Shown: one piece after another, positions 2,886 through 62,345 of the stretch
How the letters are laid out: every line of letters begins with the position of its first letter
How positions within the stretch are numbered: the first letter of the stretch is position 1
Source: Spirochaetaceae bacterium
GTDB taxonomy: Bacteria; Spirochaetota; Spirochaetia; DSM-27196; PWMO01
DNA: 64,000 nucleotides
Direction of reading: 5' to 3'
NCBI GenBank assembly: GCA_046541715.1
Contig: JBKHCS010000003.1
Location: 10,759-74,758 of the forward strand
Program-made: the position numbers and the translations under genes
The notes under the pieces: model-generated
Seen by the model: only the letters and a program-made list of their open reading frames with translations
Told to the model about the DNA's origin: nothing
The model's database searches: none

Positions 2886-3336
2886 TTCCTTACAAGACGA
2901 CTCAAGACCGGACTATGTTTTGGGTACGGCACGCTAATGGACACTACCGAGGTAATCGGCTGGGCTGTTCCGACCATAATCGGGGTGGTACCGATGTTTC
3001 TCTACACGCCCCTGAGGGCGAAGAACATGAGGAACATCCTCTTAACGCACGATGGTGGACCCCAAAGCTCTCTTCGATCGGGGGACTCGCCCAGATAGCC
3101 GCCGGGACTGCGGTCTTCTTCGTTCCCGCTCTCATCGGGCCCCAGCGATGTCTTTGCTTACGGCCGAATGGGGGGCCGCCGTCGATAATGGTTGACGCTT
3201 AGAGTCAATGTTGCAGCGTGGGGAACCACCGGGCCCGGGGCATGTTCGGCGCCTTTGTGGTCGTCGCGGATTAGTCGCCTGCGGAGTTTCCCGAGCCACC
3301 CGGGAACCCGAGCCTTGGGACGAGACAGTCCGATTC

Positions 3337-6161: not shown

Positions 6162-6224
6162 CCCGCTCCCGTTGACCCCCTATATCGTTTTACTTATGCT
6201 AGCGCTATTATAGAGCACTTCCTT

Positions 6225-7061: not shown

Positions 7062-7095
7062 TATTTCCAGCCTCTCGGCAACAAGGACAGAGAAA

Positions 7096-34651: not shown

Positions 34652-35365
34652 ATGCGACGAGTTGGTAAGATTGCGTTGGGGATTTTTGGGGTTCTCGCTG
34701 TTGGGCTTATCGGTTTTCTCGGCTATATCTGGTTCTCCGGGGGAACCGCAGAGCCGTCGCGGGAGACGGAAGCCGAAGAGGTCGCGCCCGGTCAACCGGA
34801 ATCGGTGGTCTACTCCGCGGTTCCCGGAGAGTCGGAGGCTCGGTTCATTATCGAGGAGGTCCTCCGAGGACAACCGAATACAGTGGTCGGCGTTACCGAT
34901 CAGGTAGACGGTTCGCTTTCCCTCCGGTTTCAGCCCCCGGATGTTGAGATCGGGCAGTTCGTTATCAACGTGAGGAGCGTCGAGACCGACGACGAAGTGC
35001 GGGATCGGACAATTCGATCCCTCATCCTCGAGTCGAACAAAGACGAATTCGAGTTTTCGACCTTTCAGCCGGCATCGATAGCCGGGGTTCCTGAATCGAT
35101 CGCAACCGGGGACACCCTCGACCTCGAGGTTACCGGGGATCTAACCGTTCGGGACGTTACCCGCCCGGTTGTCTTTGACATGGCCCTCGAGGTCTCCTCC
35201 CGCGAAGAGATTCGGGGCACCGCAAACACGACGATCACCTGGGACGATTTCGATATCACCATTCCCTACGTCGGGGGAGACTCTATCGTCGCGAGCGTCG
35301 GGGACGAGGTGCGTCTCGAGCTCGACTTTCTCGCCCGGGCAACCGAGAACTCGTCTCGGGAGTAA
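34652..35365 (+). CDS. YceI-like (polyisoprenoid-binding) periplasmic protein
   Basis: N-terminal TM/signal followed by YceI-like beta-barrel motifs (VETDDEVRDRTIRS, VTGDLTVRDVTRPVVF). Confidence 0.7.
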   Translation: MRRVGKIALGIFGVLAVGLIGFLGYIWFSGGTAEPSRETEAEEVAPGQPESVVYSAVPGESEARFIIEEVLRGQPNTVVGVTDQVDGSLSLRFQPPDVEIGQFVINVRSVETDDEVRDRTIRSLILESNKDEFEFSTFQPASIAGVPESIATGDTLDLEVTGDLTVRDVTRPVVFDMALEVSSREEIRGTANTTITWDDFDITIPYVGGDSIVASVGDEVRLELDFLARATENSSRE

Positions 35366-35483
35366 ATCGCGCAGTTTAATCCAAACAGTCTACTCCACTT
35401 CTCTCCGTGAGGTTGGATACTCTAGGTGGGTTCCTCGCTCCCGAGGGTATTCGGAAAATGAGGACTCCCGGAGGATAGTCAAC

Positions 35484-36470
35484 ATGAAGAAACAATCTGA
35501 CCGTCGCCTCTTTATCGCGTCGGCCATCCTGCTAACCCTTGTGGCCGCCGGAATCCTTGCTTCCTGCGCCCCGGCGGAAGAGGGGGATCAGCCGGTGTCC
35601 GTGACGTTCGGCGATATGACCTGGGATAGCGTCCGGGTACACAATCGCATCGTCGCATTCATTCTCGAGGAGGGATACGGCGACTACACCATCGATTACA
35701 CCGAAGGAGCCACGACGGCGATGGCCACCGGACTTCGACAGGGAGACCTCGACGTAATTCTCGAGTCCTGGCACAACAATTGGAACGACGCCTACGACGA
35801 GGCGATGGCGGCGGGCGAGTTTCTCGACCTTGGACCGAACTACCCGGAAGCGCCCCAGGGCTGGTACGTCCCGACCTACGTTATCGAAGGGGACGCCGAG
35901 CGCGAAATCGAGCCGATGGCTCCGGATCTCGAAACCATCGAAGATCTTCCCGAATACTGGGAGGTCTTCAAAGACCCGGAAGAGCCGGACAAGGGCCGAA
36001 TTATGGTGGGCCCCCCGGGATGGGAAGTTACCGAAACAAACGAGGAAGTGATGGAGGAGCACGGGCTCACCGATTACTACACCGCCTTCTTGCCCGGAAG
36101 CGACGCCGCCCTGAAGGCCTCCATGGAATCGGCCTACCGCCGGGAAGACCCCTGGCTCGGCTACCATTGGGAACCGACGTGGATCCTCGGAAAGCTCGAC
36201 ATGACGATGATCGAAGGCGTCGGTCTCTCAAGCGGACTGGTCCACAAGCTCGTTCATCCGAGCATGGAGGAACAGGCACCCGAGTTGGTAGAACTCCTCG
36301 AGCGCTACGAGACGACCCTGGAGCAGAACAACGCCTTTTTGGCCCAGATGCAGGAAAACGACTGGGACTACGATGACGCTGCCCAATGGTACCTCCGGGA
36401 GTACGAAAGCGATTGGACCACCTGGGTCGATGACGAGGTGGCGGAGCGGGTGCGAAGCGCGCTGGAATAG
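35484..36470 (+). CDS. glycine betaine/proline betaine ABC transporter substrate-binding lipoprotein
   Basis: Lipobox ILASCA and OpuAC-like sequence with aromatic residues (WDSVRV, ESWHNNW). Start moved to the ATG at 35484. Confidence 0.75.
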   Translation: MKKQSDRRLFIASAILLTLVAAGILASCAPAEEGDQPVSVTFGDMTWDSVRVHNRIVAFILEEGYGDYTIDYTEGATTAMATGLRQGDLDVILESWHNNWNDAYDEAMAAGEFLDLGPNYPEAPQGWYVPTYVIEGDAEREIEPMAPDLETIEDLPEYWEVFKDPEEPDKGRIMVGPPGWEVTETNEEVMEEHGLTDYYTAFLPGSDAALKASMESAYRREDPWLGYHWEPTWILGKLDMTMIEGVGLSSGLVHKLVHPSMEEQAPELVELLERYETTLEQNNAFLAQMQENDWDYDDAAQWYLREYESDWTTWVDDEVAERVRSALE

Positions 36471-36475
36471 AGCTT

Positions 36476-37681
36476 ATGAGCGAAGAGAGTCCCATTGTCC
36501 GCATCGAGGGCATTTGGAAGATTTTCGGTGCCGAACCGAAACGAATCCTAAGAGACGAAGACCGTCACGCGGATAAGGAGGATATTCTGTCTCGAACGGG
36601 GCACGTCGTTGCCCTTCGGGACATCAGCCTTACCGTAGACGCCGGAGAGTTCTATGTAATCATGGGGCTCTCCGGGAGCGGTAAGTCCACCCTTATCCGG
36701 ATTATCGAGCGTTTGATCGAGCCGACGGAGGGGAGGGTTATCGTCAAGGGGGAGGATGTCACCTCTTTCGGCAAGGAGCGGCTGGCGGATTTTCGCAAGC
36801 GCACGGTCAGTATGGTCTTTCAGAACTTCGGTCTTCTACCCCATTACACGGTGCTCCAGAACGCCGCCTACGGCCTCAAAGCCCGGGGGGAGGATCGCGA
36901 GTCCCGAGAGGAGAAGGCCCGGGAGATTCTCAAAACCGTCGGCCTCAAAGGGTGGGAGGACTACTTCCCCTCATCTTTGAGCGGCGGGATGCAGCAGCGG
37001 GTTGGGATTGCCCGGGCTCTCGCAACCGAACCGGATATCCTTCTGATGGACGAGCCCTTCAGCGGCCTCGATCCGCTGATCCGGCGGAACATGCAGGACG
37101 AGATGGTCGACCTCCAGGCGTCCCTGAACAAGACCATCGTATTCGTCACCCACGATCTCCACGAAGCCCTCAAGCTGGGGGACCGCATCGCCATCATGCG
37201 CAGCGGGGAAATCGTCCAGATCGGTACCCCGGAGGAGATCGTCTCCGAGCCTGCCGACGATTACGTCCAGCTATTCGTTCAGGACGCTTCCCCCGCACGG
37301 GTTTTCTCCGCCCAGAGCATCATGCAGGAGCCGACGATCACCGTCTATCGATGGCAGGGTCCGAGCGTCGCCCGCCGGATGATGGTCGACGCCAACCGTG
37401 AATGGGCCTACGTTCTCGACCGCCGGCAAAAGTTCTTAGGCGTCGTGCATCTCGACGACATCGAGGAACATCCCAAGGGGAAAGGGCAGGACTTCATGGA
37501 TATTATTTCCGATGACGTGAGGAGCTGTTCCCCGGAAACCGTCGTCGAAGACCTCTTCCCCCTGGTCAGCGAGTCGAGCTTTCCGGTGGCGGTCCTCGAC
37601 GAGCAAGACCACCTCCTCGGAGAGGTGCGGCCCCGGCATCTCTTCGAGATCATGAGCAAACAGGAGCAGACCGATGATTGA
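36476..37681 (+). CDS. glycine betaine ABC transporter ATP-binding protein with tandem CBS domains (OpuAA/ProV)
   Basis: Walker A GLSGSGKST, signature LSGGMQQR and Walker B LLMDEPF, with a CBS-pair C-terminus. Confidence 0.9.
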   Translation: MSEESPIVRIEGIWKIFGAEPKRILRDEDRHADKEDILSRTGHVVALRDISLTVDAGEFYVIMGLSGSGKSTLIRIIERLIEPTEGRVIVKGEDVTSFGKERLADFRKRTVSMVFQNFGLLPHYTVLQNAAYGLKARGEDRESREEKAREILKTVGLKGWEDYFPSSLSGGMQQRVGIARALATEPDILLMDEPFSGLDPLIRRNMQDEMVDLQASLNKTIVFVTHDLHEALKLGDRIAIMRSGEIVQIGTPEEIVSEPADDYVQLFVQDASPARVFSAQSIMQEPTITVYRWQGPSVARRMMVDANREWAYVLDRRQKFLGVVHLDDIEEHPKGKGQDFMDIISDDVRSCSPETVVEDLFPLVSESSFPVAVLDEQDHLLGEVRPRHLFEIMSKQEQTDD

Positions 37682-38543
37682 GTTCCCAGGGTTTCTCAAG
37701 GTACCGCTGGCGGCCTGGGTGGATACGGCCATGGATTGGGTCCTGGACAACCTGGGTCCGTTCTTCGACTTTGTGGGTACGGTGGGTCTGCAGATCCTCC
37801 TGGCAGTGGAAACGGCGCTCCTCTGGATTCCCTGGTTCGTCGTCATTCTCGGCGTCGCCATCCTCGGCTGGAAGACCCTAGAAAAGTGGTCCTACGGGGT
37901 GATTATGGCGGTAATGCTCCTGTCGATCGGAAGCTTCGGCTACTGGGAGCTCGCGATGCGCACCCTCGCCATCGTCTTAGTCTCCGTCGTAATCTCGCTG
38001 ATCATCGGGATACCCCTCGGCATCCTGATGGCCTGGAACGACCGCTTTCAGGCGTTTATCAAGCCCATCCTCGACGCGATGCAGACCCTCCCGACCTTCG
38101 TCTACCTCATCCCGGCCCTGATGCTCTTCGGTCTGGGAAAGGTACCCGCGACCTTCGCTACCATTATTTACGCCGTGCCGCCGGTCATCCGGCTTACCAA
38201 CGTCGGCATCCGAGAGGTGCCTAAGGACGTCATCGAGGCCGCCCGGGCCTTCGGGTCCAACCGGCGCGAAGTCCTCTTCGACGTCCAGCTCCCCCTCGCG
38301 CGGCCTTCGATCCTGGTCGGGGTAAACCAGACGACGATGATGGCCCTTGCCATGGTCGTTATCGGATCGATGATCGGCGCCCGGACCCTCGGTATGGAGG
38401 TGCTGGTTGCCATCAACCGTATCGAAATCGGACAGGGCTTCGAGGCCGGTATAAGCATCGTCTTTATGGCGATTATCATCGACCGGATTACCCACGCCTT
38501 CGCCGAGCAGGAACACCAACAAACTCAGAAGGCGGAGTCTTAG
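37674..38543 (+). CDS. glycine betaine ABC transporter permease (OpuAB/ProW)
   Basis: Multi-TM protein with an EAA-like loop (IEAARAFGSNRREVLFDVQLP). Overlaps the ATPase gene by 8 nt. Confidence 0.85.
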   Translation: MIEFPGFLKVPLAAWVDTAMDWVLDNLGPFFDFVGTVGLQILLAVETALLWIPWFVVILGVAILGWKTLEKWSYGVIMAVMLLSIGSFGYWELAMRTLAIVLVSVVISLIIGIPLGILMAWNDRFQAFIKPILDAMQTLPTFVYLIPALMLFGLGKVPATFATIIYAVPPVIRLTNVGIREVPKDVIEAARAFGSNRREVLFDVQLPLARPSILVGVNQTTMMALAMVVIGSMIGARTLGMEVLVAINRIEIGQGFEAGISIVFMAIIIDRITHAFAEQEHQQTQKAES

Positions 38544-38599: not shown

Positions 38600-39463
38600 A
38601 TGGTAAGAGGCACCTACACTGCCGCGAGCGGTATGGCCGCGCAGGAACACCGATTCAACGCGATCGCGAACAATCTGGCGAACGCCGATACCCACGGGTA
38701 CAAGCGCGACCTGGCCGTGCAGAAAGCCTTTCCGCAGCTTCTTCTGCGGCGAATGAGCGACGACGGGGTTCTTCGGGTTCCCTACCGGGACCAGGGGATA
38801 GGCTCGGTCGACAAGGCGCCGGTTATCGGCGTTCTCGGCACCGGGGTCGAGGAAAACGAGGTCTTTACCGTGTTCGAGCAGGGTTCCTTGGAGCAGACGG
38901 AGAACAGCTTCGACCTCGCGCTTCAGGGGGAGGGGTTCTTCGTAGTCCGGACGCCCGGCGGTGAGCGCTACACCCGGAACGGGAGCTTTCTTATCGGCCC
39001 CGAAGGGCTTCTGGTTACCAAACAGGGCTACCCGGTTCTTGGGGAGAACGGTCCCATCCGCATAAAACTGAACAATTTCGTCGTCGACGAGAACGGCCGC
39101 ATCTTCGAAAACGACTCCTTCGGGGACGACCCCGAGCGGCTTATCTCGGTCCGGGAAAACGAATGGCAGAACACCGAAGAGGTGGACCGCCTGAGGATCG
39201 TCGACGTCCGCGAGACTCGGTACCTGAGAAAGCAGGGGGATAGCCTCTGGCGATCGACCCGGGAAAGCGGAGACGCGGAGACCATCTACGGCGACAGCAG
39301 GCCGAAGGTGCGGCAGGGCTTTCTCGAGACGGCGAATGTAAACCCGGTTACCGAAATGGTTCAAATGATCGAGGTCAACCGCGCTTACGAGGCCAACCAG
39401 AAGGTTATCCAATCCCAGGACGACAGCACCAGCCGCCTGATCAACCAGGCCCTACGGATCTAG
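38600..39463 (+). CDS. flgF: flagellar basal-body rod protein FlgF
   Basis: Rod N-terminal motif YTAASGMAAQEHRFNAIANNLANADTHGYK and C-terminal EANQKVIQSQD. Confidence 0.8.
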   Translation: MVRGTYTAASGMAAQEHRFNAIANNLANADTHGYKRDLAVQKAFPQLLLRRMSDDGVLRVPYRDQGIGSVDKAPVIGVLGTGVEENEVFTVFEQGSLEQTENSFDLALQGEGFFVVRTPGGERYTRNGSFLIGPEGLLVTKQGYPVLGENGPIRIKLNNFVVDENGRIFENDSFGDDPERLISVRENEWQNTEEVDRLRIVDVRETRYLRKQGDSLWRSTRESGDAETIYGDSRPKVRQGFLETANVNPVTEMVQMIEVNRAYEANQKVIQSQDDSTSRLINQALRI

Positions 39464-39475
39464 GAGTAGCGCGCC

Positions 39476-40270
39476 ATGATGCGATCGCTGTACACCGCAG
39501 CCTCCGGGATGACCGGACAGCAGTTCAACATTGACACCATTGCCAACAACCTGTCGAACGTGAATACAACCGGATTCAAAAAGAACCGTCCGGACTTCGA
39601 GGATCTTCTCTACCAGACCGCTCGGGTAGCCGGAACACCGGCGACCGAAGAGACCCTTGTGCCCGTCGGCGTCCAGGTCGGCCACGGCGTCCGGGTCGCG
39701 GCTACACAAAAGATCTTTACCCAAGGCTCCCTCCAGAACACCGGAAACGTAGGCGACATCGCCATATCCGGGGAGGGCTTCTACCGGGTGCTTCTCTACG
39801 ACGGAAGCTTCGGCTATACCAGAGACGGCGCCTTCAAGATCGACGCGAACGGCCAGTTTGTGACGTCGAACGGCTACCGGATGATGCCGGAGATCATCCT
39901 TCCCGAGGGCTTTATCCGGGAAAGCGTCACCGTGAACCAGGACGGCCGGGTAACGGTCCTGGTGCCCGGAAGCGACGATCCGATAGAGGTCGGGCAGGTC
40001 GAGCTCTACCGTTTCGTGAACCCCGCGGGGCTTCAGGCGGTGGGGGAAAACGTCTTCAAGGTCTCCAGCGCTTCCGGGGAAGCCATAGGGGGACGTCCCG
40101 GCTTCGACGGGATGGGAAGCCTCGAGCACCGCTTTATCGAGGCGTCCAACGTCGAAGTCGTTCAAGAAATGGTAAACATGATCGTCGCCCAGCGGGCCTA
40201 CGAGCTCAACTCGAAGGCGATCCAGACGAGCGATTCGATGCTCGGTATAGCAAACAACTTGAAGCGATAG
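39476..40270 (+). CDS. flgG: flagellar basal-body distal rod protein FlgG
   Basis: MMRSLYTAASGMTGQQFNIDTIANNLSNVNTTGFKK and C-terminal MIVAQRAYELNSKAIQTSD. Confidence 0.9.
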   Translation: MMRSLYTAASGMTGQQFNIDTIANNLSNVNTTGFKKNRPDFEDLLYQTARVAGTPATEETLVPVGVQVGHGVRVAATQKIFTQGSLQNTGNVGDIAISGEGFYRVLLYDGSFGYTRDGAFKIDANGQFVTSNGYRMMPEIILPEGFIRESVTVNQDGRVTVLVPGSDDPIEVGQVELYRFVNPAGLQAVGENVFKVSSASGEAIGGRPGFDGMGSLEHRFIEASNVEVVQEMVNMIVAQRAYELNSKAIQTSDSMLGIANNLKR

Positions 40271-40279
40271 GGGTAGCCG

Positions 40280-40654
40280 ATGGATCCAATGAGCCTGATC
40301 GATCCCACCATTCGGCGGGATCCGAATAGCATCGCGCCCACCGCGACCCCCCGGACCGAAGGACTCGGTGCCGGTACCGAGGACGCTCGGCTAAAGGAAG
40401 TAAGCCGGGAGTTCGAATCGATCTTCGTGGAACAGATGCTTTCCGCGATGCGTGATACATTAGATCCGGAGAGTCGACTCCTCCACGGCGGTTTTGCGGA
40501 GGAGGTATTCGACGACATGCTATACCGGGAGTATTCCCGGATAATCTCCAAGTCCGGCGGTTTCGGCCTGGCGGAGCTCGTTTACGATCAGCTCTCCGGT
40601 CGAGCGTATCAGGGGGAGCTGTCCCCCCAGGGTCCCGGGGACTCTGTGCAATAA
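40280..40654 (+). CDS. rod-binding protein (FlgJ N-terminal domain only)
   Basis: EFESIFVEQMLSAMR motif of the FlgJ rod-binding domain. No muramidase domain. Confidence 0.7.
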   Translation: MDPMSLIDPTIRRDPNSIAPTATPRTEGLGAGTEDARLKEVSREFESIFVEQMLSAMRDTLDPESRLLHGGFAEEVFDDMLYREYSRIISKSGGFGLAELVYDQLSGRAYQGELSPQGPGDSVQ

Positions 40655-40682
40655 ACTATACACTTGGTCCTCGAATGGACAA

Positions 40683-40699
40683 TGACTCCCCGGGAGTCA
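40683..40699. repeat. 17-bp perfect palindrome TGACTCCCCGGGAGTCA
   Basis: Read directly. A T7 run (40707-40713) follows after 7 nt. Centre lies about 67 bp upstream of the -24 element. Confidence 0.85.
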
Positions 40700-40756
40700 C
40701 CACCTATTTTTTTATTCTGAAACAATTTAAAGCACAGACTGTCTCGGCCGACCGCT

Positions 40757-40772
40757 TGGCACACTGATTGCA
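40757..40772 (+). promoter_or_regulatory. sigma54 -24/-12 promoter TGGCACactgaTTGCA
   Basis: Exact match to the TGGCAC-N5-TTGCA core. Intergenic and correctly oriented, 21 nt before the ATG at 40793. Confidence 0.75.
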
Positions 40773-40792
40773 ACATTGTGCCGGAGAGGCGT

Positions 40793-41638
40793 ATGACCAC
40801 GAAGAAAAGAAAAGCCGACTACGAAGACAACACCCTCAAGGCGTACTTCGATCAGATAAAGCACTCAGATTTGCTCTCCTTCGAGGAAGAAAAAGACCTG
40901 TCGAAGCGGATTCAGAAGGGAGACGATGCGGCAAAGACAAAGCTTATCGAGTCGAACCTGCGGCTGGTCGTAAAGATCGCCAAGGGCTATGTAACCCCGG
41001 AGGTAAGCCTCCTCGACCTGATTCAGGAGGGAAACTTGGGGCTCCTCCGCGCCGCCGGCAAGTACGATTATCGAAAGCAGGTTCGCTTTAGCACCTACGC
41101 CTCCTGGTGGATCAAGCAGGCGATCACCCGGGCCCTCAGCAACAAACGGCGCCACATCCGCCTTCCCCACCGGAAGGAAGACGCTCTTCGGAAGATCCAG
41201 CGGAGTTACACGATGCTCAGCCAGAAGCTGATGCGCTCTCCCTCGGTGGAAGAGGTCGCCGAAGAAGTGGGGCTCAAGCGGGAAGAAGTCGTCCAGATCC
41301 TCAACGTCTCCTCCGGGATGGTTAGTCTCGACAGCGACATAAACGAGGATTCGGGTACCTTTCACGACATTATTGAGGATTACTCGTACTCCCCGGACGC
41401 GGAGTTTATTCAGCGCTCCTTTCGGGAGCAGACCTTGCAGTTCCTCGATCGTCTGAAAGAGAAGGAACGGCAAATACTTCTCTACCGTTTTGCCTTCCAT
41501 GGGGGCAAGAAATACACCCTCAAGAGCATTAGCGACGAGATGGGGATCTCTCCCGAAACCGTTCGGCAAATAGAGATTCGCGCGCTAAAAAAGCTAAAGG
41601 AACACGCCGAAGAGCTTCGAGAATACGTATACGAGTAG
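40793..41638 (+). CDS. group-2 (RpoS/RpoD-like) sigma-70 family sigma factor
   Basis: Region 2 NLRLVVKIAKGY and FSTYASWWIKQAITRAL. Region 4 HTH ISDEMGISPETVRQIEIRALKKL. 281 aa with no region 1.1. ATG at 40793 follows GGAGAGG. Confidence 0.8.
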   Translation: MTTKKRKADYEDNTLKAYFDQIKHSDLLSFEEEKDLSKRIQKGDDAAKTKLIESNLRLVVKIAKGYVTPEVSLLDLIQEGNLGLLRAAGKYDYRKQVRFSTYASWWIKQAITRALSNKRRHIRLPHRKEDALRKIQRSYTMLSQKLMRSPSVEEVAEEVGLKREEVVQILNVSSGMVSLDSDINEDSGTFHDIIEDYSYSPDAEFIQRSFREQTLQFLDRLKEKERQILLYRFAFHGGKKYTLKSISDEMGISPETVRQIEIRALKKLKEHAEELREYVYE

Positions 41639-41662: not shown

Positions 41663-42631
41663 ATGGCTACCGGCGGCACCTCTCCCGGTGCTAAGACCCG
41701 CGTACTGCGACTCTCTCTGCTTGCTATTGCGGTAGCCCTCGGTCTTCTGCCGGCGCTGCTTCCGAGAGAGCGGGAAGAAGCCGCCCGGGGACCGGATGAG
41801 GTTCTCTCGGTTCCGGAGACCACAGAGCCGGCCCCCGAAGCGGAACCGCCTGAACCGGCTCCCCCGGAGGTCCCGGCGCCGGTTCCGGAAGGACCCGAGG
41901 CGGAGGATCCGGTACCGCCGGCTCCTCTCTCCCCCCAGCCGGAGGCGATTGCGCGCCTCTACCTCGTAGTGGATGACGTGGGAAACCGGCGGGAGGACTT
42001 AGACCCGTACCTGAGCCTCGACATTCCGATTACCTTCGCGGTGCTCCCGCAACTTCCGTTCTCCGAGGAATCCGCCGTACGGATTTCCACCCGGGGACAG
42101 GAGCTTATTCTGCACCTGCCGATGGAAGCCGAGAGCGGGAAGTATCCCGGTCCGGGGACCATCTACGTCGGCGACTCCCACCGCAGCATTACCGAAACCC
42201 TCCGGGCGAATCTCCGGAGCGTTCCCGGAGCCAAAGGAATCAACAACCACATGGGATCCAAGGCCACCGCGGACCGGAACACCATGAACGCCGCCCTCGA
42301 GTTCGCCCGGAGAGAGGGACTCTTCTTTCTCGATTCCCGGACAACCCACAATACGGTCGCCCTCGAAGTGGCCCGGGAAAAGAGGGTACCCGCGGCGGAG
42401 CGCCACGTCTTTCTCGATAACGTCCGGGAGGTCGAGGCGATCCGGGAGGCCTTAATCCAGGGCGTCGCCCTGGCCCGGGAACAGGGGTACGCCGTTCTTA
42501 TCGGCCACGCGACAAGCCCGGAGCTCGCCACGGTGCTCCGGGAAGAGGCGTCGGCTCTAGAAGATGCGGGGATCCGGTTCTTCCATCTTTCGGCGTTGTT
42601 AGGGACTCCTCATGTTGGTTCTGGGGATTGA
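41663..42631 (+). CDS. divergent polysaccharide deacetylase family protein (YibQ-like)
   Basis: N-terminal anchor plus a Pro/Glu-rich linker, with motifs LVVDDVGN, INNHMGSKAT and FLDSRTT. Confidence 0.7.
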   Translation: MATGGTSPGAKTRVLRLSLLAIAVALGLLPALLPREREEAARGPDEVLSVPETTEPAPEAEPPEPAPPEVPAPVPEGPEAEDPVPPAPLSPQPEAIARLYLVVDDVGNRREDLDPYLSLDIPITFAVLPQLPFSEESAVRISTRGQELILHLPMEAESGKYPGPGTIYVGDSHRSITETLRANLRSVPGAKGINNHMGSKATADRNTMNAALEFARREGLFFLDSRTTHNTVALEVAREKRVPAAERHVFLDNVREVEAIREALIQGVALAREQGYAVLIGHATSPELATVLREEASALEDAGIRFFHLSALLGTPHVGSGD

Positions 42632-43625
42632 AACTTCCTGCGACGAGTGCTCCGTCGCCTTGGTCGAAGACGGTGTCTCGCTTTCGGGTATGCTCATCGC
42701 GACCCAGGACGAGGTTCACGCGCCCTACAGCGGTGTAGTCCCCGAGCTGGCCTCCCGACGGCACGTCGAAACCATCTTCCCTATCTACCAGGAAGTCCTT
42801 AAGGGGGCCGGATGCCGACCTGCGGACATTGATCTTGTCGCGGTAACGGTCCAGCCGGGCCTCGCCGGCTCCCTCGCGGTTGGGGTCGCCTTCGCGAAGG
42901 CGCTCGCTTTGGGATTGGGGCGCCCGGTCGTCGGGGTGGACCACATTTCCGCCCACCTCTACGCGATACAACTCGAACGGAAGGTCGCCTATCCCTTTCT
43001 CGGCCTCGTCATATCCGGGGGGCACACCCTGATCGCCCGGTGTCTGAGCCCAACGGAGTTTGAGGTCCTCGGGACGACCATAGACGATGCCTGTGGTGAG
43101 GCCTTCGACAAGGTGGCAAAGCATCTCGAGCTGGGCTACCCCGGGGGCGTCGCCATAGACCGTCTTGCCCGTCGGGGGGACCCGAGGGCTTTTCGTTTTC
43201 CGGTTCCTTCTCTCCACAAGGGAGACCACCGGTACGATGTTTCCTATTCGGGCCTCAAGACGGCGGTTGTCAACCAGCTCGAGCAGTTCCGGAATCCCGG
43301 TTACGAGGCCACACCGGAGAACATCGCCGCCGGCTTCGAGGCCTCCGCCGTCGACATGGCACTAAACCGCCTCCGGAAGGCCCAAAAAGACACCAGGATG
43401 GGCCGGATTGTCGTAGCCGGGGGAGTAGCCTCGAACAGCTATCTCCGGAGCCGTTTGAGCGATTGGAAGGGTGCCGAGGTCTTTGTTCCGTCGAAGCGCC
43501 TCTGTACGGACAACGGCGCGATGGTCGCGGGGCTCGGATACCACGTCTACCGGGAGCGGGGCGCCGGGAATCTGGATCTCGATATTTTGCCGAAAGTTCC
43601 GGAGTTCCGGGGAAACTATCCCTGA
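42612..43625 (+). CDS. tsaD: tRNA N6-adenosine threonylcarbamoyltransferase TsaD
   Basis: LGIETSCDE, HLYA and GGVASN motifs. Confidence 0.9.
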   Translation: MLVLGIETSCDECSVALVEDGVSLSGMLIATQDEVHAPYSGVVPELASRRHVETIFPIYQEVLKGAGCRPADIDLVAVTVQPGLAGSLAVGVAFAKALALGLGRPVVGVDHISAHLYAIQLERKVAYPFLGLVISGGHTLIARCLSPTEFEVLGTTIDDACGEAFDKVAKHLELGYPGGVAIDRLARRGDPRAFRFPVPSLHKGDHRYDVSYSGLKTAVVNQLEQFRNPGYEATPENIAAGFEASAVDMALNRLRKAQKDTRMGRIVVAGGVASNSYLRSRLSDWKGAEVFVPSKRLCTDNGAMVAGLGYHVYRERGAGNLDLDILPKVPEFRGNYP

Positions 43626-44717: not shown

Positions 44718-45248
44718 ATGGACGCACCTGATCTCGACAAAGCCATACGAAAAGTCCCGGACTTCCCCCACGAGGGAATTCTCTTTTACGACATCACCGG
44801 AGTTCTCAACGATCCGGCCGCCTTCGGCTACTGCATAGACGAGGCGGTTCGGCGCTATTCCGGAAAGGCATTTGGGGCCGTCGCCGGGGTAGAGGCCCGG
44901 GGGTTCGCCTTCGCCGCTCCGATCGCCCTCCGGTTGGGCCTTCCCCTGATTCTCGTCCGCAAGAAGGGGAAACTTCCGGGAGAGACCATCTCCGAGGCGT
45001 TCGACCTCGAGTATGGGAAAGCCGTGGTAGAGATACAGCCCGTCGAGGTGCCCGGGGGTGCGAAGGTGCTCCTCGTCGACGACCTGATCGCCACCGGCGG
45101 CACCCTGAAGGCGGCGATGCGGCTCTTCGAGCGAGTCGGGGCGAAGGTTACCGACATCTTCGCGGTTATTGGGTTGCCCTTTCTGAATTTCTCCGACCAA
45201 CTCACCGGTGTCGAGATTCAAACGCTTTTGGACTACGCCGGCGAGTAG
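44718..45248 (+). CDS. apt: adenine phosphoribosyltransferase
   Basis: FPHEGILFYDIT and the PRPP motif VLLVDDLIATGGT. Confidence 0.9.
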   Translation: MDAPDLDKAIRKVPDFPHEGILFYDITGVLNDPAAFGYCIDEAVRRYSGKAFGAVAGVEARGFAFAAPIALRLGLPLILVRKKGKLPGETISEAFDLEYGKAVVEIQPVEVPGGAKVLLVDDLIATGGTLKAAMRLFERVGAKVTDIFAVIGLPFLNFSDQLTGVEIQTLLDYAGE

Positions 45249-56182: not shown

Positions 56183-56242
56183 CCTACCGAAATGTAGGAT
56201 TTTGCGTCTTCGGGTCCACATTATTGTAGGACTTTTCCTACC
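56183..56242. promoter_or_regulatory. two dyads built from GTAGG/CCTAC half-sites (candidate enhancer-binding-protein sites)
   Basis: CCTACcgaaatGTAGG at 56183-56198 and GTAGGActttTCCTAC at 56227-56242, 62-121 bp upstream of the sigma54 promoter. Confidence 0.4.
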
Positions 56243-56303: not shown

Positions 56304-56319
56304 TGGCACGTAATTTGCA
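56304..56319 (+). promoter_or_regulatory. sigma54 -24/-12 promoter TGGCACgtaatTTGCA for gltBD
   Basis: Exact core match. Intergenic, 35 nt before the gltB ATG at 56354. Confidence 0.75.
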
Positions 56320-56353: not shown

Positions 56354-59300
56354 ATGAGCTATCGACAACGCCCGGGCCGGCAGGGCCTTTACCACCCCGA
56401 TTACGAGCACGACGCCTGCGGCGTCGGCTTTGTCGCGGATATAAAAGGGCGCCGAAGCCACGACATCGTGGAGAAGGCGAAGACCGTTCTTATCAACATG
56501 ACCCACCGTGGAGCCGTCGGGAGCGACAAGAACTCCGGCGACGGAGCGGGAATCTTAACCGCCTTGCCCCACAGGTTTCTCGAAAAGGTGATGGCGACGG
56601 AGCTCGACGTCTCTCTTCCGGAGCGGGGGCGCTACTCCGCGGGTCTGGTCTTTCTCCCGACGGACCCGGGCCTCGAGAAGCTCTGCATGGAGCGGACCGC
56701 GGAGATCGTTACCCGGGAGGGGCAGAAGCTTCTCGGGTGGCGGGACGTTCCCCGGGACAACAGCATGATCGGGCCCACGGCGCTTGCCGCGGAGCCGACG
56801 ATGAAGCAGCTTTTCGTCGCCGCCGGAGACGGTCTGGCCGACGACGCCTTCGAACGGAAGCTCTACGTTATCCGGAAGCAGATGCAGACCCTAATTCGCG
56901 GAAGCGAGATTGACCCGGAATCGTTCTTCTACGTCTGCAGCCTTTCGACAAAGGTTATCGTGTACAAGGGCATGTTGATGCCCGAGCAGCTCTTCGACTA
57001 CTTCCGCGATCTCGGCGACCCGGCTTACCAGACCCACCTCGCGATGATCCACTCGCGCTTCTCTACGAACACCTTTCCGAGCTGGGACCGGGCGCAGCCC
57101 ATGCGCTTTATGAGCCACAACGGCGAGATCAACACCCTCCGGGGGAACGTGAATAAGATGCGCGCCCGGGAAGGCACCCTATCGACCGAGCTTTTCGGCG
57201 ACGATTTGCAGAAGGCCTTCCCGATTATCGAGGAGGATAGCTCCGACTCCGGAAACTTCGATAACACCCTGGAGCTTCTCTTGCTCTCCGGGCGGGAGCT
57301 GCCGGAAGCGGTCATGATGATGGTTCCCGAAGCCTGGCATCATCACGAGCACATGCCCCGGCACGGGAAGGACGTCTACGAGTACATGAGCTGCGTCATG
57401 GAGCCCTGGGACGGTCCGGCCTCGATCTCCTTTACCGACGGCAGAGTGATAGGCGCGCTTCTCGACCGGAACGGGCTGCGACCGAGCCGGTACTACGTAA
57501 CCAAGGACGACCTGGTCGTGATGGCGAGTGAGGTCGGCGTCCTCGACATACCGCCGGGGGAAATCAAGCTCAAGGGACGCCTTCAGCCGGGGCGCATGTT
57601 CCTCGTAGACTTCGAAAAGGGCAGGATCGTCGACGACGAGGAGCTCAAGGACGGCATCGCCCTGGCACGTCCCTACGGCAAGTGGCTCGAGGAGCAGCGG
57701 ATCCGCTTAGATGAGCTCCCGGAGGTAAGCCACAACGGACAACGGGAGACAGCCGACCTGCTGCCGCTTCTTCGGACATTCGGCTACACCCTCGAGCACC
57801 TGAACATCATCCTGAAGCCGATGGCGGAAGCAGGAAAGGAGCCCCTCGGCTCGATGGGAAACGACTCGCCCCTCGCGGTTCTCTCCGAACGGCCCCGGCT
57901 TCTCTACGACTACTTCAAGCAACTTTTCGCCCAGGTTACCAACCCTCCCATCGATTCGATTCGGGAGGATATTATCATGAGCCTCGGCTCCTACATCGGC
58001 CCGGAGCAGAACCTCCTCGACACCTCGCCGGCCCACTGCCACCGCCTCTGGATCGACCACCCGGTCTTGAGAGACTCGGAGCTCGCGAAGCTGAAGAAGA
58101 TTACCTACCGAGGTTGGAAGTCCAAGACCGTCGACATCACCTTCCCGGTCGACGACGGAGAGGCCGGTCTCCGTCCCGCCCTCGAGCGCATCTCCCGGGA
58201 GGCCGAGGAGGCGATCGCAGAAGGTTATAGCCTCGTCATTCTCTCGGACCGACGGGCAGGGGAAGAACGAGTGCCGGTGCCGGCCCTCATGGCAACAGGG
58301 ACGGTCCACCACCATCTGGTGCGTCGGGCCAAGCGGACCCAGATTGGTCTGGTCGTCGAAAGCGGCGAGCCGAGGGAAGTTCATCATTTCTGCACCCTGG
58401 TTGGGTACGGCGCCGACGCCATCAATCCCTACGGGGCCCTCGACGCGATGCGGATGCTCCGCCGGGACGGCATCATCAATCCCGAGCTGACGACGGCGCA
58501 GATCGAGGAGCACTACTTTCGCGCTTTGGCGTATGGGATGAGGAAGGTCTTCGGGAAGATGGGTATCTCCACCATAGACAGCTACAAGGGCGCACAAATT
58601 TTCGAGATCGTCGGGCTCCACCAGGAGGTCGTGGACCTCTGTTTCGCCGGGACCCCGAGCCGTATCTCCGGGGCCGGCTTCGACACCATCGCCAAAGAAG
58701 CGATTCTGCGGCACGACATGGGGTTTCCGAAGGGGAACGAGCCGATCGGCGCCGAGTACTACAATCCCGGAGACTACCAGTGGCGCTTCGGCGGCGAAAA
58801 GCACATGTGGGACCCCGAGTCCGTCGCCGACCTCCAGGTCGCAGCGAGAAACGAGGACCGGGCCGCCTTTAAGCGGTTTACCGCGCGGCAGAACGAGCGA
58901 TCGAAACAACAGGCGACCATACGGGGCCTTTTAAAGTTCAAGCCGGGGAACCCGATTCCGCTTTCCGAAGTGGAGCCCGCGGCAAACATCGTCCGGCGTT
59001 TCGTAACCGGCGCCATGAGCTTCGGGTCCATCTCCCAAGAGGCCCACGAGACCCTCGCCGTCGCGATGAACCGCCTCGGGGGAAAGTCGAATACCGGGGA
59101 GGGCGGGGAGATGCCCGAGCGCTACCGGAAGCTTCCGAACGGCGACTCCAAGCGCTCGGCGATCAAGCAGGTAGCCTCCGGGCGCTTCGGGGTTACCATC
59201 GAGTACCTCTCGGAGAGCGACGAGCTCCAGATCAAGATGGCCCAAGGCGCGAAACCCGGGGAGGGTGGTGAGCTTCCGGGACACAAGGTTTTCGACATTA

Positions 59301-60895
59301 TCGCCAAGACCCGTTACTCGACCCCGGGGGTGGGCCTTATCAGTCCGCCGCCCCACCACGATATCTACTCTATCGAGGATCTCGCCCAGCTTATCTTCGA
59401 CCTAAAGAACGCGAATCCCAAGGCGCGGATTAGCGTAAAGCTGGTCTCCGAGGTCGGTGTCGGGACGGTAGCCGCCGGAGTTGCCAAGGCCCACGCGGAC
59501 CATATTCTGGTCTCCGGCCAGGACGGAGGCACCGGGGCGTCTCCCCTTACGGGAATCAAGCACGCCGGTCTTCCCTGGGAGCTCGGTCTTTCCGAGACGC
59601 ACCAAACCCTGGTTATGAACGACCTGCGAACCCGGGTGGTGGTGCAGACCGACGGGCAGATAAAGACCGGCCGGGACGTGGTTATCGCCGCAATGCTCGG
59701 CGCCGAGGAGATGGGGTTTTCCACCTCGGCCCTTGTCAGCGTCGGGTGCATTATGATGCGCGTCTGCCACAAGAATACCTGTCCCGTCGGGGTCGCGACC
59801 CAGGACGAAAGCCTTCGAAAGAAGTTTGTCGGTAAGCCGGAGCACGTCGTCACCTTTATGACCTTTCTCGCGGAGGAAGTCCGGGAGTTAATGGCCGAGC
59901 TCGGCTTTAGGACTTTCGACGAAATGGTCGGACGGGTCGACATGCTCGAAGAAGACCCGGACGTCCGGCATTGGAAGAGCGCGGGTATCGACCTCTCGGC
60001 GTTGTTGACTCCGGCGGTTCCCCAGCCCGGGGCCACCGACCGCGTTATTTGCTGCGTCCCCCAGGACCACGGCATCGACACCGTCTTGGATCGACAGCTC
60101 ATCAAGCTCGCCGAGAAGGTGCTCCTCCATCGGGAGCCGCTGCGCCTCGACTTGCCGATCCGGAACACCGACCGGGCCACCGGAACGATGCTCAGCCATC
60201 ATCTGACCACCCGGTGGGGACCGAGGGGGCTTCCCCCGGACACCCTCTGGATAAAATTGACCGGCTCCGCCGGCCAAAGCTTCGGCGCCTGGATGACCAA
60301 CGGTGTCACTCTGGAGCTCGAAGGGGACGCGAACGACTACTGCGGCAAGGGGCTTTCGGGGGGCAAGCTGATCGTCTACCCGCCGAAGGACGCGGGCTTT
60401 GTCCCGGAGGAGAACATCATCATCGGGAACGTGGCCCTCTACGGGGCGACGATGGGCCGGGCCTACTTTCGCGGCCAGGCGGCGGAGCGTTTCTGCGTGC
60501 GGAACTCCGGCGCCTACGTGGTGGTCGAAGGGGTCGGGGACCACGGGTGCGAATACATGACCGGCGGCCGGGCCGTTATTATCGGTCCCACGGGACGGAA
60601 CTTTGCTGCGGGCATGTCCGGGGGCATCGCCTACATATGGGACCCCGAAGATCGCCTCGCGTCCCGGGTCAACAAGGGGATGGTGGAGATCTCTCCGCTC
60701 GAGGAGGAGGAATGCCAAGAGGTGCTCCAACTCTTGCGGGAGCACCAGTTCCACACCGATTCTACCGTGGCGGCGCACATACTTGAGACCTGGGAGGACC
60801 GGAAGTCGGAATTTCGCAAGGTCATTTCCCCGGCGTACCGCCGGATTCTCGAACTGCAGCAGCTGAACAAGCAACAGGAGGTGGCGCATGGGTAA
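56354..60895 (+). CDS. gltB: glutamate synthase large subunit
   Basis: N-terminal CGVGF amidotransferase Cys with FMN and GXGXG domains. ATG at 56354 is preceded by AGGAGAG. Confidence 0.95.
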
Positions 60896-62345
60896 GCCCA
60901 CCGGTTTTATGGAATATCAGCGCCAGGGGGTGGCCGACCGAAACCCCCTCGAGCGCATTCAGGACTTCAACGAGTTTCACAAAGAGATCGATGAACCTGC
61001 GCGACAGGAGCAGGGTGCCCGGTGCATGGACTGCGGCATTCCCTTCTGTCAGTCGAACTACGGTTGCCCGGTTGACAATCTTATTCCCGAGTGGAACGAC
61101 CTGGTCTACCGAGGCCGCTGGGAAGACGCATGGAAGCGTCTGATGAAGACCAACAACTTTCCGGAGTACACCGGGAGGGTCTGTCCGGCGCCCTGCGAGA
61201 GTGCCTGTGTCCTCGGCATCAACGAGCCGGCGGTAACCATAAAAGACAACGAGTGTGCCATTATCGACAAGGCCTACGACGCCGGGCTGATGGTCCCCCG
61301 GATTCCCGAGGTCCGTACCGGAAAACGGGTGGCTATCGTCGGCTCGGGTCCCGCGGGCCTGGCGGCGGCGGACCAGCTGAACCAGGCGGGCCACCTCGTA
61401 ACCGTCTTCGAACGGGACGATCGGATCGGCGGGCTCTTGATGTACGGCATCCCGAACATGAAGCTAGACAAGAGCCTCGTCGAGAAACGAAACGCTCTGA
61501 TGCGGGAAGAGGGCATAGAGTTCCGTCCCGGGGTCAACGTCGGTACCGACATCGATCCGGTGCGGCTCGTCGAGGAATACGACGCCGTGCTCCTCGCCTG
61601 CGGCGCGACAAACCCTCGTGACCTTCCGGCACCGGGGCGGGAAAAATCGGGTATCCACTTTGCGATGGAGTTCTTGCGGGCCAACACCAAGAGTCTTCTC
61701 GATTCGAGCTTTGCCGACGGCAACTACATCTCTGCGAAGGACAAACACGTGGTCGTTATCGGCGGCGGGGACACCGGGAACGACTGCATCGGCACCTCGG
61801 TGCGTCATGGCGCGGCGAGCATCACCAACTTCGAGCTCCTCCCGGAGCCGGCACCCCACCGGACCGAGGAGTATCCCTGGCCGACCTACCCCCGGCTCAA
61901 GAAGATGGATTACGGTCACGAAGAAGTGAACGCCCGGGACGGGGCGGACCCCCGGGTCTACAGTATCCTTACCAAGGAGTTTCTCGGGAACGGGAAGGTC
62001 GAAGGCATCCGCACGGTCCGGGTGGCCTGGAAGAAGGAACCCGGCGAGCGTCCCACCTTCGAAGAGATCCCCGGCAGCGAGGAGGAGTGGAAGGCGGACC
62101 TCGTGCTCCTGGCGATGGGGTTCTTAGGCCCTGAGGCACCTATCGGAGAGGCCCTCGGTGTCGAGACCGACCCCCGGTCCAACTTCAGGGCGGAATACGA
62201 GCGCTTTTCTACGAGCGTGCCGAAGGTCTTCGCCGCCGGAGACGCCCGGCGGGGCCAGTCCCTGGTTGTCTGGGCCATCAAGGAGGGGCGCGGCGCCGCC
62301 CGGGAGATCGACCGCTACCTGATGGGGCGGACCTTGTTGCCCTAG
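60888..62345 (+). CDS. gltD: glutamate synthase small subunit (NADPH)
   Basis: Fe-S Cys clusters and dinucleotide folds [14 protein letters not shown] and [12 protein letters not shown]. Confidence 0.9.

Follow-up and report, generated by a model that had tools for sequence, protein, structure and literature searches.

The DNA analyzed here, a 64-kb stretch of a Spirochaetaceae contig (referred to below as the window), carries a run of flagellar rod genes followed by a gene for an RpoS-like σ factor, all on the + strand. The flgF gene (38600 to 39463), for the proximal rod protein, scored 189.6 bits against TIGR02490 (cutoff, 178.5), and its product has the Pfam domains Flg_bb_rod, D1, and Flg_bbr_C; flgG (39476 to 40270), for the distal rod protein, scored 467.5 bits against the FlgG model NF009456 (cutoff, 416). 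Next comes a flgJ-like gene (40280 to 40654) encoding a rod-binding protein of 124 aa with the N-terminal FlgJ domain only (PF10135, Rod-binding; 56.6 bits). The NCBIfam and Pfam matches confirm the gene order given in the initial annotation, which placed the σ gene behind flgF, flgG, and a flgJ-like gene; relatives such as locus L009 (CP070696.1) also have flgA-flgI between flgG and flgJ. The σ gene itself (40793 to 41638) is followed 24 nt downstream by a gene for a divergent polysaccharide deacetylase (41663 to 42631; PF04748, 234 bits), with which it is possibly cotranscribed, and then by tsaD (42612 to 43625; TIGR03723, 385.4 bits; cutoff, 296.1), a tRNA t6A synthesis gene that overlaps the end of the deacetylase gene. 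The σ-deacetylase-tsaD order is kept in most of the spirochete loci that we compared, including Treponema-type loci without upstream flg genes.

Within the 138-nt gap between the flgJ-like stop codon (ending at 40654) and the σ ATG (40793) lies an exact σ54-type −24/−12 element, TGGCACactgaTTGCA (40757 to 40772, + strand), in the sense orientation. All 11 core positions of TGGCACACTGATTGCA match; the GG (40758-40759) and GC (40770-40771) doublets are 10 bp apart, as in the consensus YTGGCACG-N4-TTGCW, and the base after TGGCAC is A, the preferred G being found in 83% of relatives. The ATG begins 21 nt after the end of the element and 22 nt after its −12 C. From the standard spacing to −12, transcription is predicted to start at about 40783. 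A Shine-Dalgarno sequence, GGAGAGG, can be read at 40783 to 40789, on or beside the point where the mRNA is predicted to begin, so that the leader would be unusually short, about 10 to 12 nt; in the aligned spirochete promoters, positions +28 to +30, counted from the promoter T, form a G-rich block. An inverted repeat spanning the promoter (40758-40766/40774-40782) was absent from the other loci inspected by eye and was set aside.

The initial annotation had described this arrangement (an intergenic, correctly oriented exact core with GGAGAGG and the ATG just downstream), and every element of it is present in the sequence. It had further noted two copies of the motif, both in front of genes and more than chance would supply. 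We found exactly two matches to TGGCAC-N5-TTGCA in the window (40757-40772 and 56304-56319), each of them on the + strand, and none in any of 100 dinucleotide-preserving shuffles. The second match, TGGCACGTAATTTGCA, lies 34 nt before the ATG (56354) of the glutamate synthase gene gltB (56354 to 60895, + strand), which is followed by gltD (60888 to 62345). Two dyads upstream of it, CCTAC-N6-GTAGG (56183-56198) and GTAGG-N6-CCTAC (56226-56241), were seen by eye, their 5-bp arms having escaped the repeat finder; they differ from the dyad at the σ gene described below. The gltBD promoter appears to be independent evidence that this organism uses σ54. We found no signatures of rpoN or of an enhancer-binding protein (EBP), namely GAFTGA, Walker A, or the RpoN box, in the 64-kb window. 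The flanks of the spirochete loci held no EBP gene, and an RpoN signature occurred there only in locus L042, where the σ gene has a full-length rpoN 2.2 kb away.

The σ factor (281 aa) consists of regions 1.2, 2, 3, and 4, as assigned by Pfam and NCBIfam (Pfam Sigma70 r1_2, residues 14 to 46; r2, 51 to 120; r3, 131 to 200; r4, 218 to 270). Only 13 residues precede region 1.2, and Pfam found neither region 1.1 nor the nonconserved insert of primary σ factors. The ORF contains FSTYASWWIKQAITRAL and, in region 3.0 (residues 123 to 129), the signature RLPHRKE of the spirochete σ clade. RpoS and RpoD are its best NCBIfam matches, and SigA and RpoS its best PDB matches; the top 25 NCBIfam families comprise RpoS, RpoD, SigA, SigB/F/G, and RpoH, with no FliA or ECF family among them. 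These assignments agree with the earlier view of the protein as a group 1/2-type rather than a FliA or ECF σ, with group 2 motifs and region 4 but without region 1.1.

The further label "RpoS-like" stands for domain layout and best-matching family but not for descent. In layout (regions 1.2, 2, 3, and 4 but no region 1.1) the protein equals proteobacterial RpoS (σ38; TIGR02394), to which it is also similar in size; RpoS is its top NCBIfam match and is represented among its best PDB matches. However, its score against TIGR02394 (247.2 bits) is below the cutoff (378.7), and among genome-derived loci the spirochete σ factors formed a clade separate from 42 other σ factors, including E. coli RpoS and RpoD, in 99 of 100 neighbor-joining bootstraps; the value was only 26 of 100 when all divergent database representatives were forced into the clade. 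E. coli RpoS fell outside the spirochete clade and grouped with short σ factors of non-spirochete loci (L062 to L080). Region 3.0 also differs, reading RLPHRKED here and RLPIHIVKE in proteobacterial RpoS, so that our alignment puts an acidic residue opposite E. coli K173; and the spirochete σ gene sits behind a σ54 promoter, unlike E. coli rpoS. The protein belongs to a spirochete-specific clade and is not an orthologue of proteobacterial RpoS, and because the two are separate, the name RpoS is only an analogy. A 100% identical protein is annotated in "MAG: Spirochaetaceae bacterium."

To place the promoter in a wider context, we compared 59 related spirochete loci with upstream sequence from Spirochaetales and Treponematales (48 to 73% protein identity; 29 to 69% GC). 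A −24/−12 element is present at the orthologous position in all 59, with GG...GC in 57 and GG...GT in two (L027 and L031). The GG-N10-GC element mostly lies 20 to 27 nt before the start codon (range, 8 to 52 nt; 112 nt in one locus). When 58 promoters were aligned on the motif, T-TGGCA-Y-G-N4-T-TGC-W was invariant or nearly so and equaled the published σ54 consensus; the 4-nt spacer and the flanks were randomized, with no information content. Across 752 kb of spirochete loci, both strands included, the strict motif occurred 42 times at the promoter position and nowhere else, and none of 19 non-spirochete loci had a −24/−12 element before the related σ gene. The promoter stays with the σ gene in Treponema-type loci without upstream flg genes, and it is under strong purifying selection.

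A second conserved element lies farther upstream. The sequence TGTGCAATAAACTATACA (40645 to 40662, + strand), a TGT-N12-ACA dyad that overlaps the flgJ stop codon (40652-40654), begins 112 bp before the T that opens TGGCAC and is a candidate enhancer (UAS). The family consensus is TGTATA-N6-TATACA, found at −99 to −113 in most loci; about half have a second dyad at −140 to −147, about 33 bp further upstream, and even L017, in which the promoter call is ambiguous, has dyads at −113 and −147 from its candidate promoter. In a cross-validation, a model trained on half of the loci placed a site above the 95th percentile of controls in 29 of 29 held-out loci, and the reciprocal model did so in 29 of 29. 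The −60 to −21 region is 75 to 78% A+T across loci; we recognized no IHF-like consensus. Classical enhancer-dependent σ54 promoters likewise have dyad UASs, such as the TGT-N10-ACA bound by NifA and the NtrC sites at glnAp2. The spirochete promoters resemble these in having a TGT...ACA dyad about 100 to 150 bp upstream of −24/−12, often with a second copy about three helical turns off, and in the AT-rich, bendable nature of the spacer; they differ from NifA sites in having N12 rather than N10 and the half-site TGTATA. While an enhancer role would suit the dyad best, it might instead bind a protein other than an EBP.

A hairpin, TGACTCC-CCG-GGAGTCA (40683-40699), followed 7 nt later by seven T residues (40707-40713), also lies between the UAS and the promoter, where the DNA is rich in A+T. 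The 7-bp stem was detected as an inverted repeat and is all that the centroid fold retains. This feature (40683 to 40713, + strand) may serve as terminator of the flg operon; the distance between stem and T-run was too large for the terminator scan to call it. A hairpin with a T-run was present in just 8 of 56 loci, and we therefore claim no conserved terminator. Rfam matched no RNA family in 40200 to 41200.

We propose that 40757-40772 is a functional σ54-dependent promoter dedicated to the σ gene at 40793-41638. The σ54 holoenzyme would bind the −24 GG and −12 GC and stay closed until remodeled by an ATP-hydrolyzing EBP, which most likely would occupy the TGT-N12-ACA dyad and loop to the promoter across the AT-rich spacer. 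Transcription from near 40783 would yield a leader of about 10 nt that opens at the Shine-Dalgarno sequence. The RpoS-like σ would then redirect core polymerase to its own regulon, making this a two-step σ cascade gated by a signal-sensing activator. The dyad, the promoter, and the σ gene would form a module, usually with the deacetylase gene and tsaD behind it and often with flgJ before it, that is common to Spirochaetales and Treponematales; the Rrp2-RpoN-RpoS cascade of Borrelia is most likely its homologue. We assign this model as a whole (σ54 promoter, dyad-bound EBP, RpoS-like σ cascade, shared module, and Borrelia homology) a probability of about 0.8.

Other readings of the locus fit less well. 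The σ gene is co-oriented with the flg genes and begins 138 nt behind them, and the hairpin with its T-run is no canonical terminator, so most σ transcripts could come by read-through from flgF-flgG-flgJ, or from an unrecognized σ70 or σ28 promoter, with the −24/−12 element giving only a conditional boost. A longer Borrelia rpoS transcript from an upstream promoter was reportedly found by Lybecker and Samuels (2007). Such a source is also favored by the putative promoters that Burtnick et al. drew upstream of the σ54 promoter in the flgI-flgJ-rpoS region of Borrelia (PMC1976401). However, our promoter scan of the flgJ-σ gap saw no σ70-type site on its + strand. Moreover, the −24/−12 element and the dyad are invariantly conserved, also in loci without upstream flg genes, and therefore both are probably used; we regard read-through as the main source as quite unlikely. 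Chance, or a site for some unrelated protein, has only the small size of the motif in its favor, and the absence of shuffle matches, the exact σ54 consensus pattern in 59 of 59 loci, and the lack of the strict motif elsewhere in them effectively refute it.

The σ factor could also be a FliA-type flagellar σ or a housekeeping σ instead of one for stress or adaptation, as its position beside flagellar rod genes and its public annotation as "RpoD/SigA" or "primary sigma factor" would suggest. Against this stand the presence of regions 1.2 and 3, best matches to RpoS and RpoD with FliA missing from the 25 best families, the missing region 1.1 and nonconserved insert of primary σ factors, and the Treponema-type loci that have no flagellar linkage. 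A housekeeping role would also be hard to square with an activator-gated promoter, and we consider either assignment very improbable. The σ54-driven, RpoS-like σ of our model would carry a practical rule: spirochete proteins of 270 to 290 aa annotated as "RpoD/SigA" are to be read as alternative, not primary, σ factors.

The initial annotation stated that Borrelia burgdorferi rpoS (BB0771) lies next to flagellar rod genes behind a −24/−12 promoter, and the literature agrees: the gene order is flgI-flgJ-rpoS, with a σ54 promoter mapped by primer extension in the flgJ-rpoS gap, and the mapped start site is lost in an rpoN mutant (PMC1976401). The native promoter, AAATTGGCACAGTTTTTGCATG in published data, shares with ours the core TGGCAC-N5-TTGCA directly upstream of a short RpoS-like σ gene (PMC1976401, PMC6719511), the T that flanks this core, and the A/T that follows TTGC. 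Both σ genes directly follow flgJ, and the flgI-flgJ order of many relatives matches flgI-flgJ-rpoS. The differences are as follows. The leader is predicted to be about 10 to 12 nt here versus about 50 nt in Borrelia, where 59 bp separate the rpoS promoter from the end of the reporter fragment (PMC1976401). About 110 bp upstream, the σ gene here has a conserved TGT-N12-ACA dyad. In Borrelia, by contrast, a minimal promoter lacking the upstream DNA suffices for normal rpoS expression (PMC3037356, PMC1976401), and an enhancer is therefore no known part of the Borrelia system. BosR sites, TAAATTAAAT, flank the Borrelia rpoS promoter, whereas none of these direct repeats was visible by eye upstream of our σ gene. 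Finally, the host here is an environmental Spirochaetaceae MAG of 60.6% GC and not a tick-borne pathogen.

We deduced 28 residues of B. burgdorferi RpoS (within residues 72 to 102) from published quantitative PCR oligonucleotides. Thirty-six of the best 40 matches to this fragment are members of the spirochete σ clade, and five of its six discriminating positions (A, Y, N, S, and K) agree with that clade. Once the I79 register is applied, the reported Borrelia residues R121 and K122 correspond to the RK of the clade motif RLPxRKE. Searches for the complete protein returned other sequences: a profile search of 1.84 billion representatives gave 150 unnamed proteins, and the cluster names of 20 AT-rich or short candidates were Treponema, Spirochaetota MAG, or none, with no Borrelia; the AT-rich representative P0169, used as a query, likewise brought up no Borrelia sequence; a padded 43-aa query built from the oligonucleotides matched only fragments of ≤75 aa; and a metagenome scan with the Borrelia promoter 21-mer gave 19 unrelated contigs of 50 to 65% GC without the σ gene. 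Taken together, the 28 published residues, the two reported positions, and the shared synteny and promoter suggest that BB0771 is most likely homologous to the spirochete σ genes.

The arrangement could instead have arisen independently in Borrelia, or BB0771 might not be an orthologue, in which case the cascade would not be ancestral. Such convergence would suit the differing leader length and enhancer dependence, and the K at column 20 of the fragment, one of the six discriminating positions, favors σ factors outside the family. It would leave unexplained the shared promoter core with its flanking bases, the shared place directly after flgJ, with flgI also present in relatives, the other five fragment positions, and the fitting RK register; in addition, Borreliaceae belong to Spirochaetales in the NCBI taxonomy, beside families that carry the module. 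We therefore think convergence unlikely, and homology remains our preferred reading. The module occurs in Spirochaetaceae, Breznakiellaceae, Rectinemataceae, and Treponema-type genomes (cultured carriers include Alkalispirochaeta alkalica DSM 8900 and Gracilinema caldarium) and so, by parsimony, is older than Borrelia. This supports the proposal in the initial annotation that the same synteny and promoter type in this GC-rich, free-living type of spirochete make the cascade ancestral.

A fuller version of that proposal seems to us only a little better than an even bet. It holds that the cascade is an ancestral module of Spirochaetia (Spirochaetales plus Treponematales, including Borreliaceae) whose layout is fixed: about 110 bp upstream stands a TGT-N12-ACA enhancer, often joined by another some 33 bp beyond it, and then come AT-rich DNA, a consensus −24/−12 element, and a minimal leader. 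The host-adaptation switch of Borrelia would be a rewired form of this inheritance in which dependence on the enhancer was lost, control by BosR and small RNAs was gained, and the leader grew longer. The dyad would supply the DNA site that has long been missing for Rrp2-type activators, of which the Rrp2 of Treponema denticola is an unstudied example.

In the Lyme disease agent, the Rrp2-RpoN-RpoS pathway acts as the central switch for virulence and host adaptation; the abstract of one report on Borrelia calls it "novel" (PMC2940757). We found no published account of a σ54-to-RpoS-like σ arrangement outside Borrelia. Another example of a σ54-to-σ cascade is a predicted σ54 promoter for σ32 in enterobacteria, for which experimental evidence was unreported as of PMC3162934; there too one alternative σ would control transcription of another, but the target belongs to a different σ family. 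From the loci compared here, the σ54-to-RpoS switch looks like an old spirochete feature. If the module is indeed present in dozens of free-living and host-associated spirochetes, the evolutionary answer would be a spirochete-specific σ clade that is always σ54 dependent. The model would also suggest a conserved enhancer sequence open to direct tests with Rrp2-type activators, and tractable nonpathogenic or oral spirochetes in which to ask about the ancestral signal and regulon.

A pattern scan for TGGCAC-N5-TTGCA found exactly two matches in the 64-kb window, both on the + strand: TGGCACACTGATTGCA at 40757-40772, ahead of the gene for a 281-residue RpoS-like σ factor (40793-41638), and TGGCACGTAATTTGCA at 56304-56319, ahead of gltB; 100 dinucleotide-preserving shuffles of the window, whose G+C content is 60.6%, gave none. 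This confirms the initial annotation, which had reported an exact, intergenic and correctly oriented −24/−12 core and two copies in the window, each in front of a gene. The first copy falls in the 138 nt that separate the stop of a flgJ-like gene from the ATG at 40793, and the GGAGAGG that had been noticed just downstream is a Shine-Dalgarno sequence at 40783-40789 (+ strand), between promoter and ATG. The −12 C is 22 nt from the σ start codon (24 nt is the commonest distance among relatives). With the usual σ54 spacing, transcription would start near 40783, so the σ mRNA is predicted to have a leader of only ∼10-12 nt, its 5′ end coinciding with the Shine-Dalgarno sequence or immediately preceding it. 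The flgJ-σ gap showed no + strand σ70-like promoter and no Rfam family match. It does contain a 7-bp hairpin (40683-40699) followed by seven Ts (40707-40713), which could be a terminator of the flg operon; a hairpin of this type, with its T-run, occurs in only 8 of 56 loci. A 9-nt inverted repeat (40758-40766/40774-40782; GGCACACTG/CATTGTGCC; 89% complementary) covers the promoter and predicted start, and was not seen in the other loci that we inspected by eye.

Scanning one genome per species for relatives of the σ protein yielded 80 loci, 61 from spirochetes (48-73% protein identity to the query) and 19 from other phyla. The spirochete loci cover the Spirochaetales and Treponematales, range from 29 to 69% G+C, and include Alkalispirochaeta alkalica, Gracilinema caldarium, Rectinemataceae, Treponemataceae, and Treponema spp. 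A −24/−12 element is present just 5′ of the start codon in all 59 spirochete loci having upstream sequence and absent from all 19 non-spirochete loci. The strict pattern TGGCAY-N5-TTGCW occurs 42 times at the σ promoter position and nowhere else on either strand of 752 kb of spirochete loci. In 58 motif-aligned promoters, information is confined to T-TGGCA-Y-G-N4-T-TGC-W, with none in the spacer or flanks; the published σ54 consensus is the same pattern, with T before TGC and a preference for G after TGGCAC. The GG...GC core is kept in 57 of 59 promoters, the exceptions being two related loci, L027 and L031 (TGGCACG-N4-TTGTT). In these, the −12 GC has become GT, ∼38 nt 5′ of the σ ATG, and the upstream dyad is kept in perfect or nearly perfect form (GTATACAAAAGTATACA); their promoter may be weakened or tuned differently. 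At another spirochete locus, L017, which was initially ambiguous, the candidate TGGCACTGATCCTGCA lies 127 nt upstream and is confirmed by the conserved upstream dyads that accompany it. Treponema-type loci lack upstream flg genes, yet the promoter is still there, as are the deacetylase and tsaD genes that follow the σ gene; judged from these sequences, the promoter moves together with the σ gene. Taken together, the comparative evidence argues strongly for a functional −24/−12 element.

The 220 bp 5′ of the promoters are enriched in GTATACA (20 loci versus 1 among control regions in a k-mer enrichment), which we refined to an 18-bp consensus, TGTATA-N6-TATACA; this dyad has the form TGT-N12-ACA and is A-rich at its center. 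When models trained on half of the loci were applied to the other half, all held-out loci (29 of 29 and 29 of 29) had a site scoring higher than the control-region 95th percentile. Measured from the T of TGGCAC, most dyads lie at −99 to −113, and a second class lies at −141 to −146; in about half of the loci both are present, oppositely oriented and ∼33 bp apart. The proximal dyad of the window (TGTGCAATAAACTATACA; 40645-40662, + strand) overlaps the flgJ stop codon, but because dyads occur both with and without flgJ upstream, they belong to the σ promoter rather than to flgJ. The interval from −60 to −21 is 75-78% A+T across loci. Classical σ54 enhancers include the NifA site, TGT-N10-ACA, and the NtrC sites. 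Since its position, dyad symmetry, duplication, and AT-rich spacer resemble those of such enhancers, we propose that the TGT-N12-ACA dyad is a candidate binding site for the cognate activator.

The second promoter sits 34 nt 5′ of gltB (56354-60895), the first gene of a gltB-gltD pair that extends to 62345; nitrogen assimilation is a classical σ54 target. Two dyads, 43 bp apart and read by eye, precede it on the + strand: CCTAC-N6-GTAGG (56183-56198; ∼113 bp 5′ of the promoter) and GTAGG-N6-CCTAC (56226-56241; ∼70 bp). Their sequence is unlike that of the σ-gene dyad, which suggests that a different activator, probably NtrC-like, acts at gltB. Neither an RpoN box nor enhancer-binding protein signatures (GAFTGA, Walker A, ESELFGH) were found in any frame of the 64-kb window, barring one GAFSGA, dismissed because its reading frame was judged by eye to be non-coding. 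In spirochete locus L042, a full-length rpoN (5749-7140) encoding the σ54 AID, CBD, and DBD domains lies 2.2 kb downstream of the σ gene. Together with the consensus promoter at gltBD, this gives indirect support for rpoN in the genome of the window. In L042 (Spirochaetia bacterium MS502-30, 2746-7140), an opposite-strand gene of 707 codons lies between the σ gene and rpoN.

A protein annotated in "MAG: Spirochaetaceae bacterium" matches the σ factor of the window at 100% identity. The σ factor has Pfam Sigma70 regions 1.2, 2, 3, and 4, and region 1.2 is preceded by only 13 residues, in agreement with the earlier view that it lacks region 1.1. Its top NCBIfam match is proteobacterial RpoS, but the score (247 bits) is far under the curated cutoff (378.7) and nearly equaled by RpoD, SigA, and cyanobacterial group-2 models; matches to solved structures are likewise similar (SigA, 206; RpoS, 178-188; E. 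coli RpoD, 165 bits). In a neighbor-joining tree (266 trimmed columns), the σ factors of the spirochete loci form one clade (99/100 bootstraps against 42 outgroup sequences) that leaves out E. coli RpoS and RpoD, RpoD-like representatives, and the best non-spirochete relatives; support drops to 26/100 when the clade is made to include very divergent database representatives. E. coli RpoS clusters outside it, with the short σ factors of the non-spirochete loci (Nitrospirota and others). The family also has a signature in region 3.0, RLPxRKE (RLPHRKE in the window; residues 123-129, 41159-41179), where RpoD has IPVHMVE and RpoS has LPIHIVK; region 3.0 contacts the extended −10 element, and the signature may confer a distinct promoter specificity. 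From its domain layout, family scores, tree position, and region 3.0 signature, we conclude that it is an RpoS-like alternative σ factor of a spirochete-specific clade, and neither a σ38 orthologue nor FliA, an ECF σ, or a primary σ.

The RpoN-to-RpoS-type cascade proposed in the initial annotation is supported: the window appears to encode a σ54-to-RpoS-like σ cascade, a known kind of system. As stated there, B. burgdorferi rpoS adjoins flagellar genes and has a −24/−12 promoter: Burtnick et al. found the order flgI-flgJ-rpoS, with a σ54 promoter between flgJ and rpoS whose primer-extension product disappears when rpoN is mutated (PMC1976401). That promoter, CCATTTTTAAATTAAATTGGCACAGTTTTTGCATG in the primers of the same paper, has a core identical to that in the window (TGGCAC-N5-TTGCA). 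It lies ∼59 bp ahead of the leader-fragment end (PMC1976401), giving a leader of roughly 50 nt, in contrast to the ∼10-12 nt predicted here. In Borrelia, a minimal rpoS promoter without upstream DNA suffices, and BosR sites (TAAATTAAAT) lie on either side (PMC3037356). Residues 72-102 of Borrelia RpoS, deduced from the rpoS qPCR primers and probe (PMC1976401), read QEGNLGLIR-AEKYDPNKNTKF--YASFWIK; 36 of the 40 best alignment matches to this peptide are family members, and it has the family's discriminating residues A, Y, N, S, and K, although at one position, column 20, its K points to non-family σ factors. In the register set by I79, R121/K122 of Borrelia RpoS (residues from Caimano et al., PMC6719511) align with the RK of RLPxRKE. 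The status of BB0771 as a true RpoS was questioned by Chiang and Schellhorn (2010) and Hengge (2011), according to the citing passage in PMC6719511, and reviews describe Leptospira as lacking RpoS (PMC12655853). The searched literature, largely outside subscription journals, yielded no description of a σ54-dependent rpoS-like gene outside Borrelia; what appears to be new here is the module in every spirochete locus examined and its conserved candidate enhancer. Exact matches to a 21-mer of the Borrelia rpoS promoter (AATTGGCACAGTTTTTGCATG) turn up in 19 unrelated metagenome contigs of 50-65% GC, several of them from human gut. No σ gene lies near any of these matches, which may be other σ54 promoters with a shared spacer.

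Family assignments agree that the σ gene stands behind flgF (38600-39463), flgG (39476-40270), and a FlgJ-like rod-binding gene (40280-40654); it is followed by a polysaccharide deacetylase gene (PF04748; 41663-42631) and tsaD (42612-43625), all on the + strand. In many relatives (L009, at 5266-7366, L007, L008, L012, L014, L015, L018, and others), flgG and flgJ are separated by flgA (PF13144) and flgI (P-ring; PF02119), which is the Borrelia order. In the window, flgG and flgJ are just 9 nt apart (40270-40280), so the P-ring genes were lost or moved in its lineage. If BB0769 is gcp/tsaD and BB0777 is apt, synteny between the window and Borrelia reaches further. Directly 5′ of flgF is an ABC transporter cluster (35169-38543) that by eye looks like the glycine-betaine/proline (ProVWX/OpuA) type. 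Its first gene, for the substrate-binding protein, is listed as an ORF from 35169 and probably starts near 35481; next come the genes for an ATPase extended at its C terminus (36476-37681) and for the permease (37674-38543). The closest non-spirochete relatives (L062-L080, for example, L063, 8001-9373, and L066, 8001-9355; Nitrospirota, Verrucomicrobiota, and others) are short σ factors of 280-340 residues, and in 9 of these 19 loci apt lies within ∼420 nt downstream of the σ gene (<80 nt in seven). In spirochetes, apt is 2-5 kb downstream (44718-45248 in the window), which hints that the σ-apt linkage is old.
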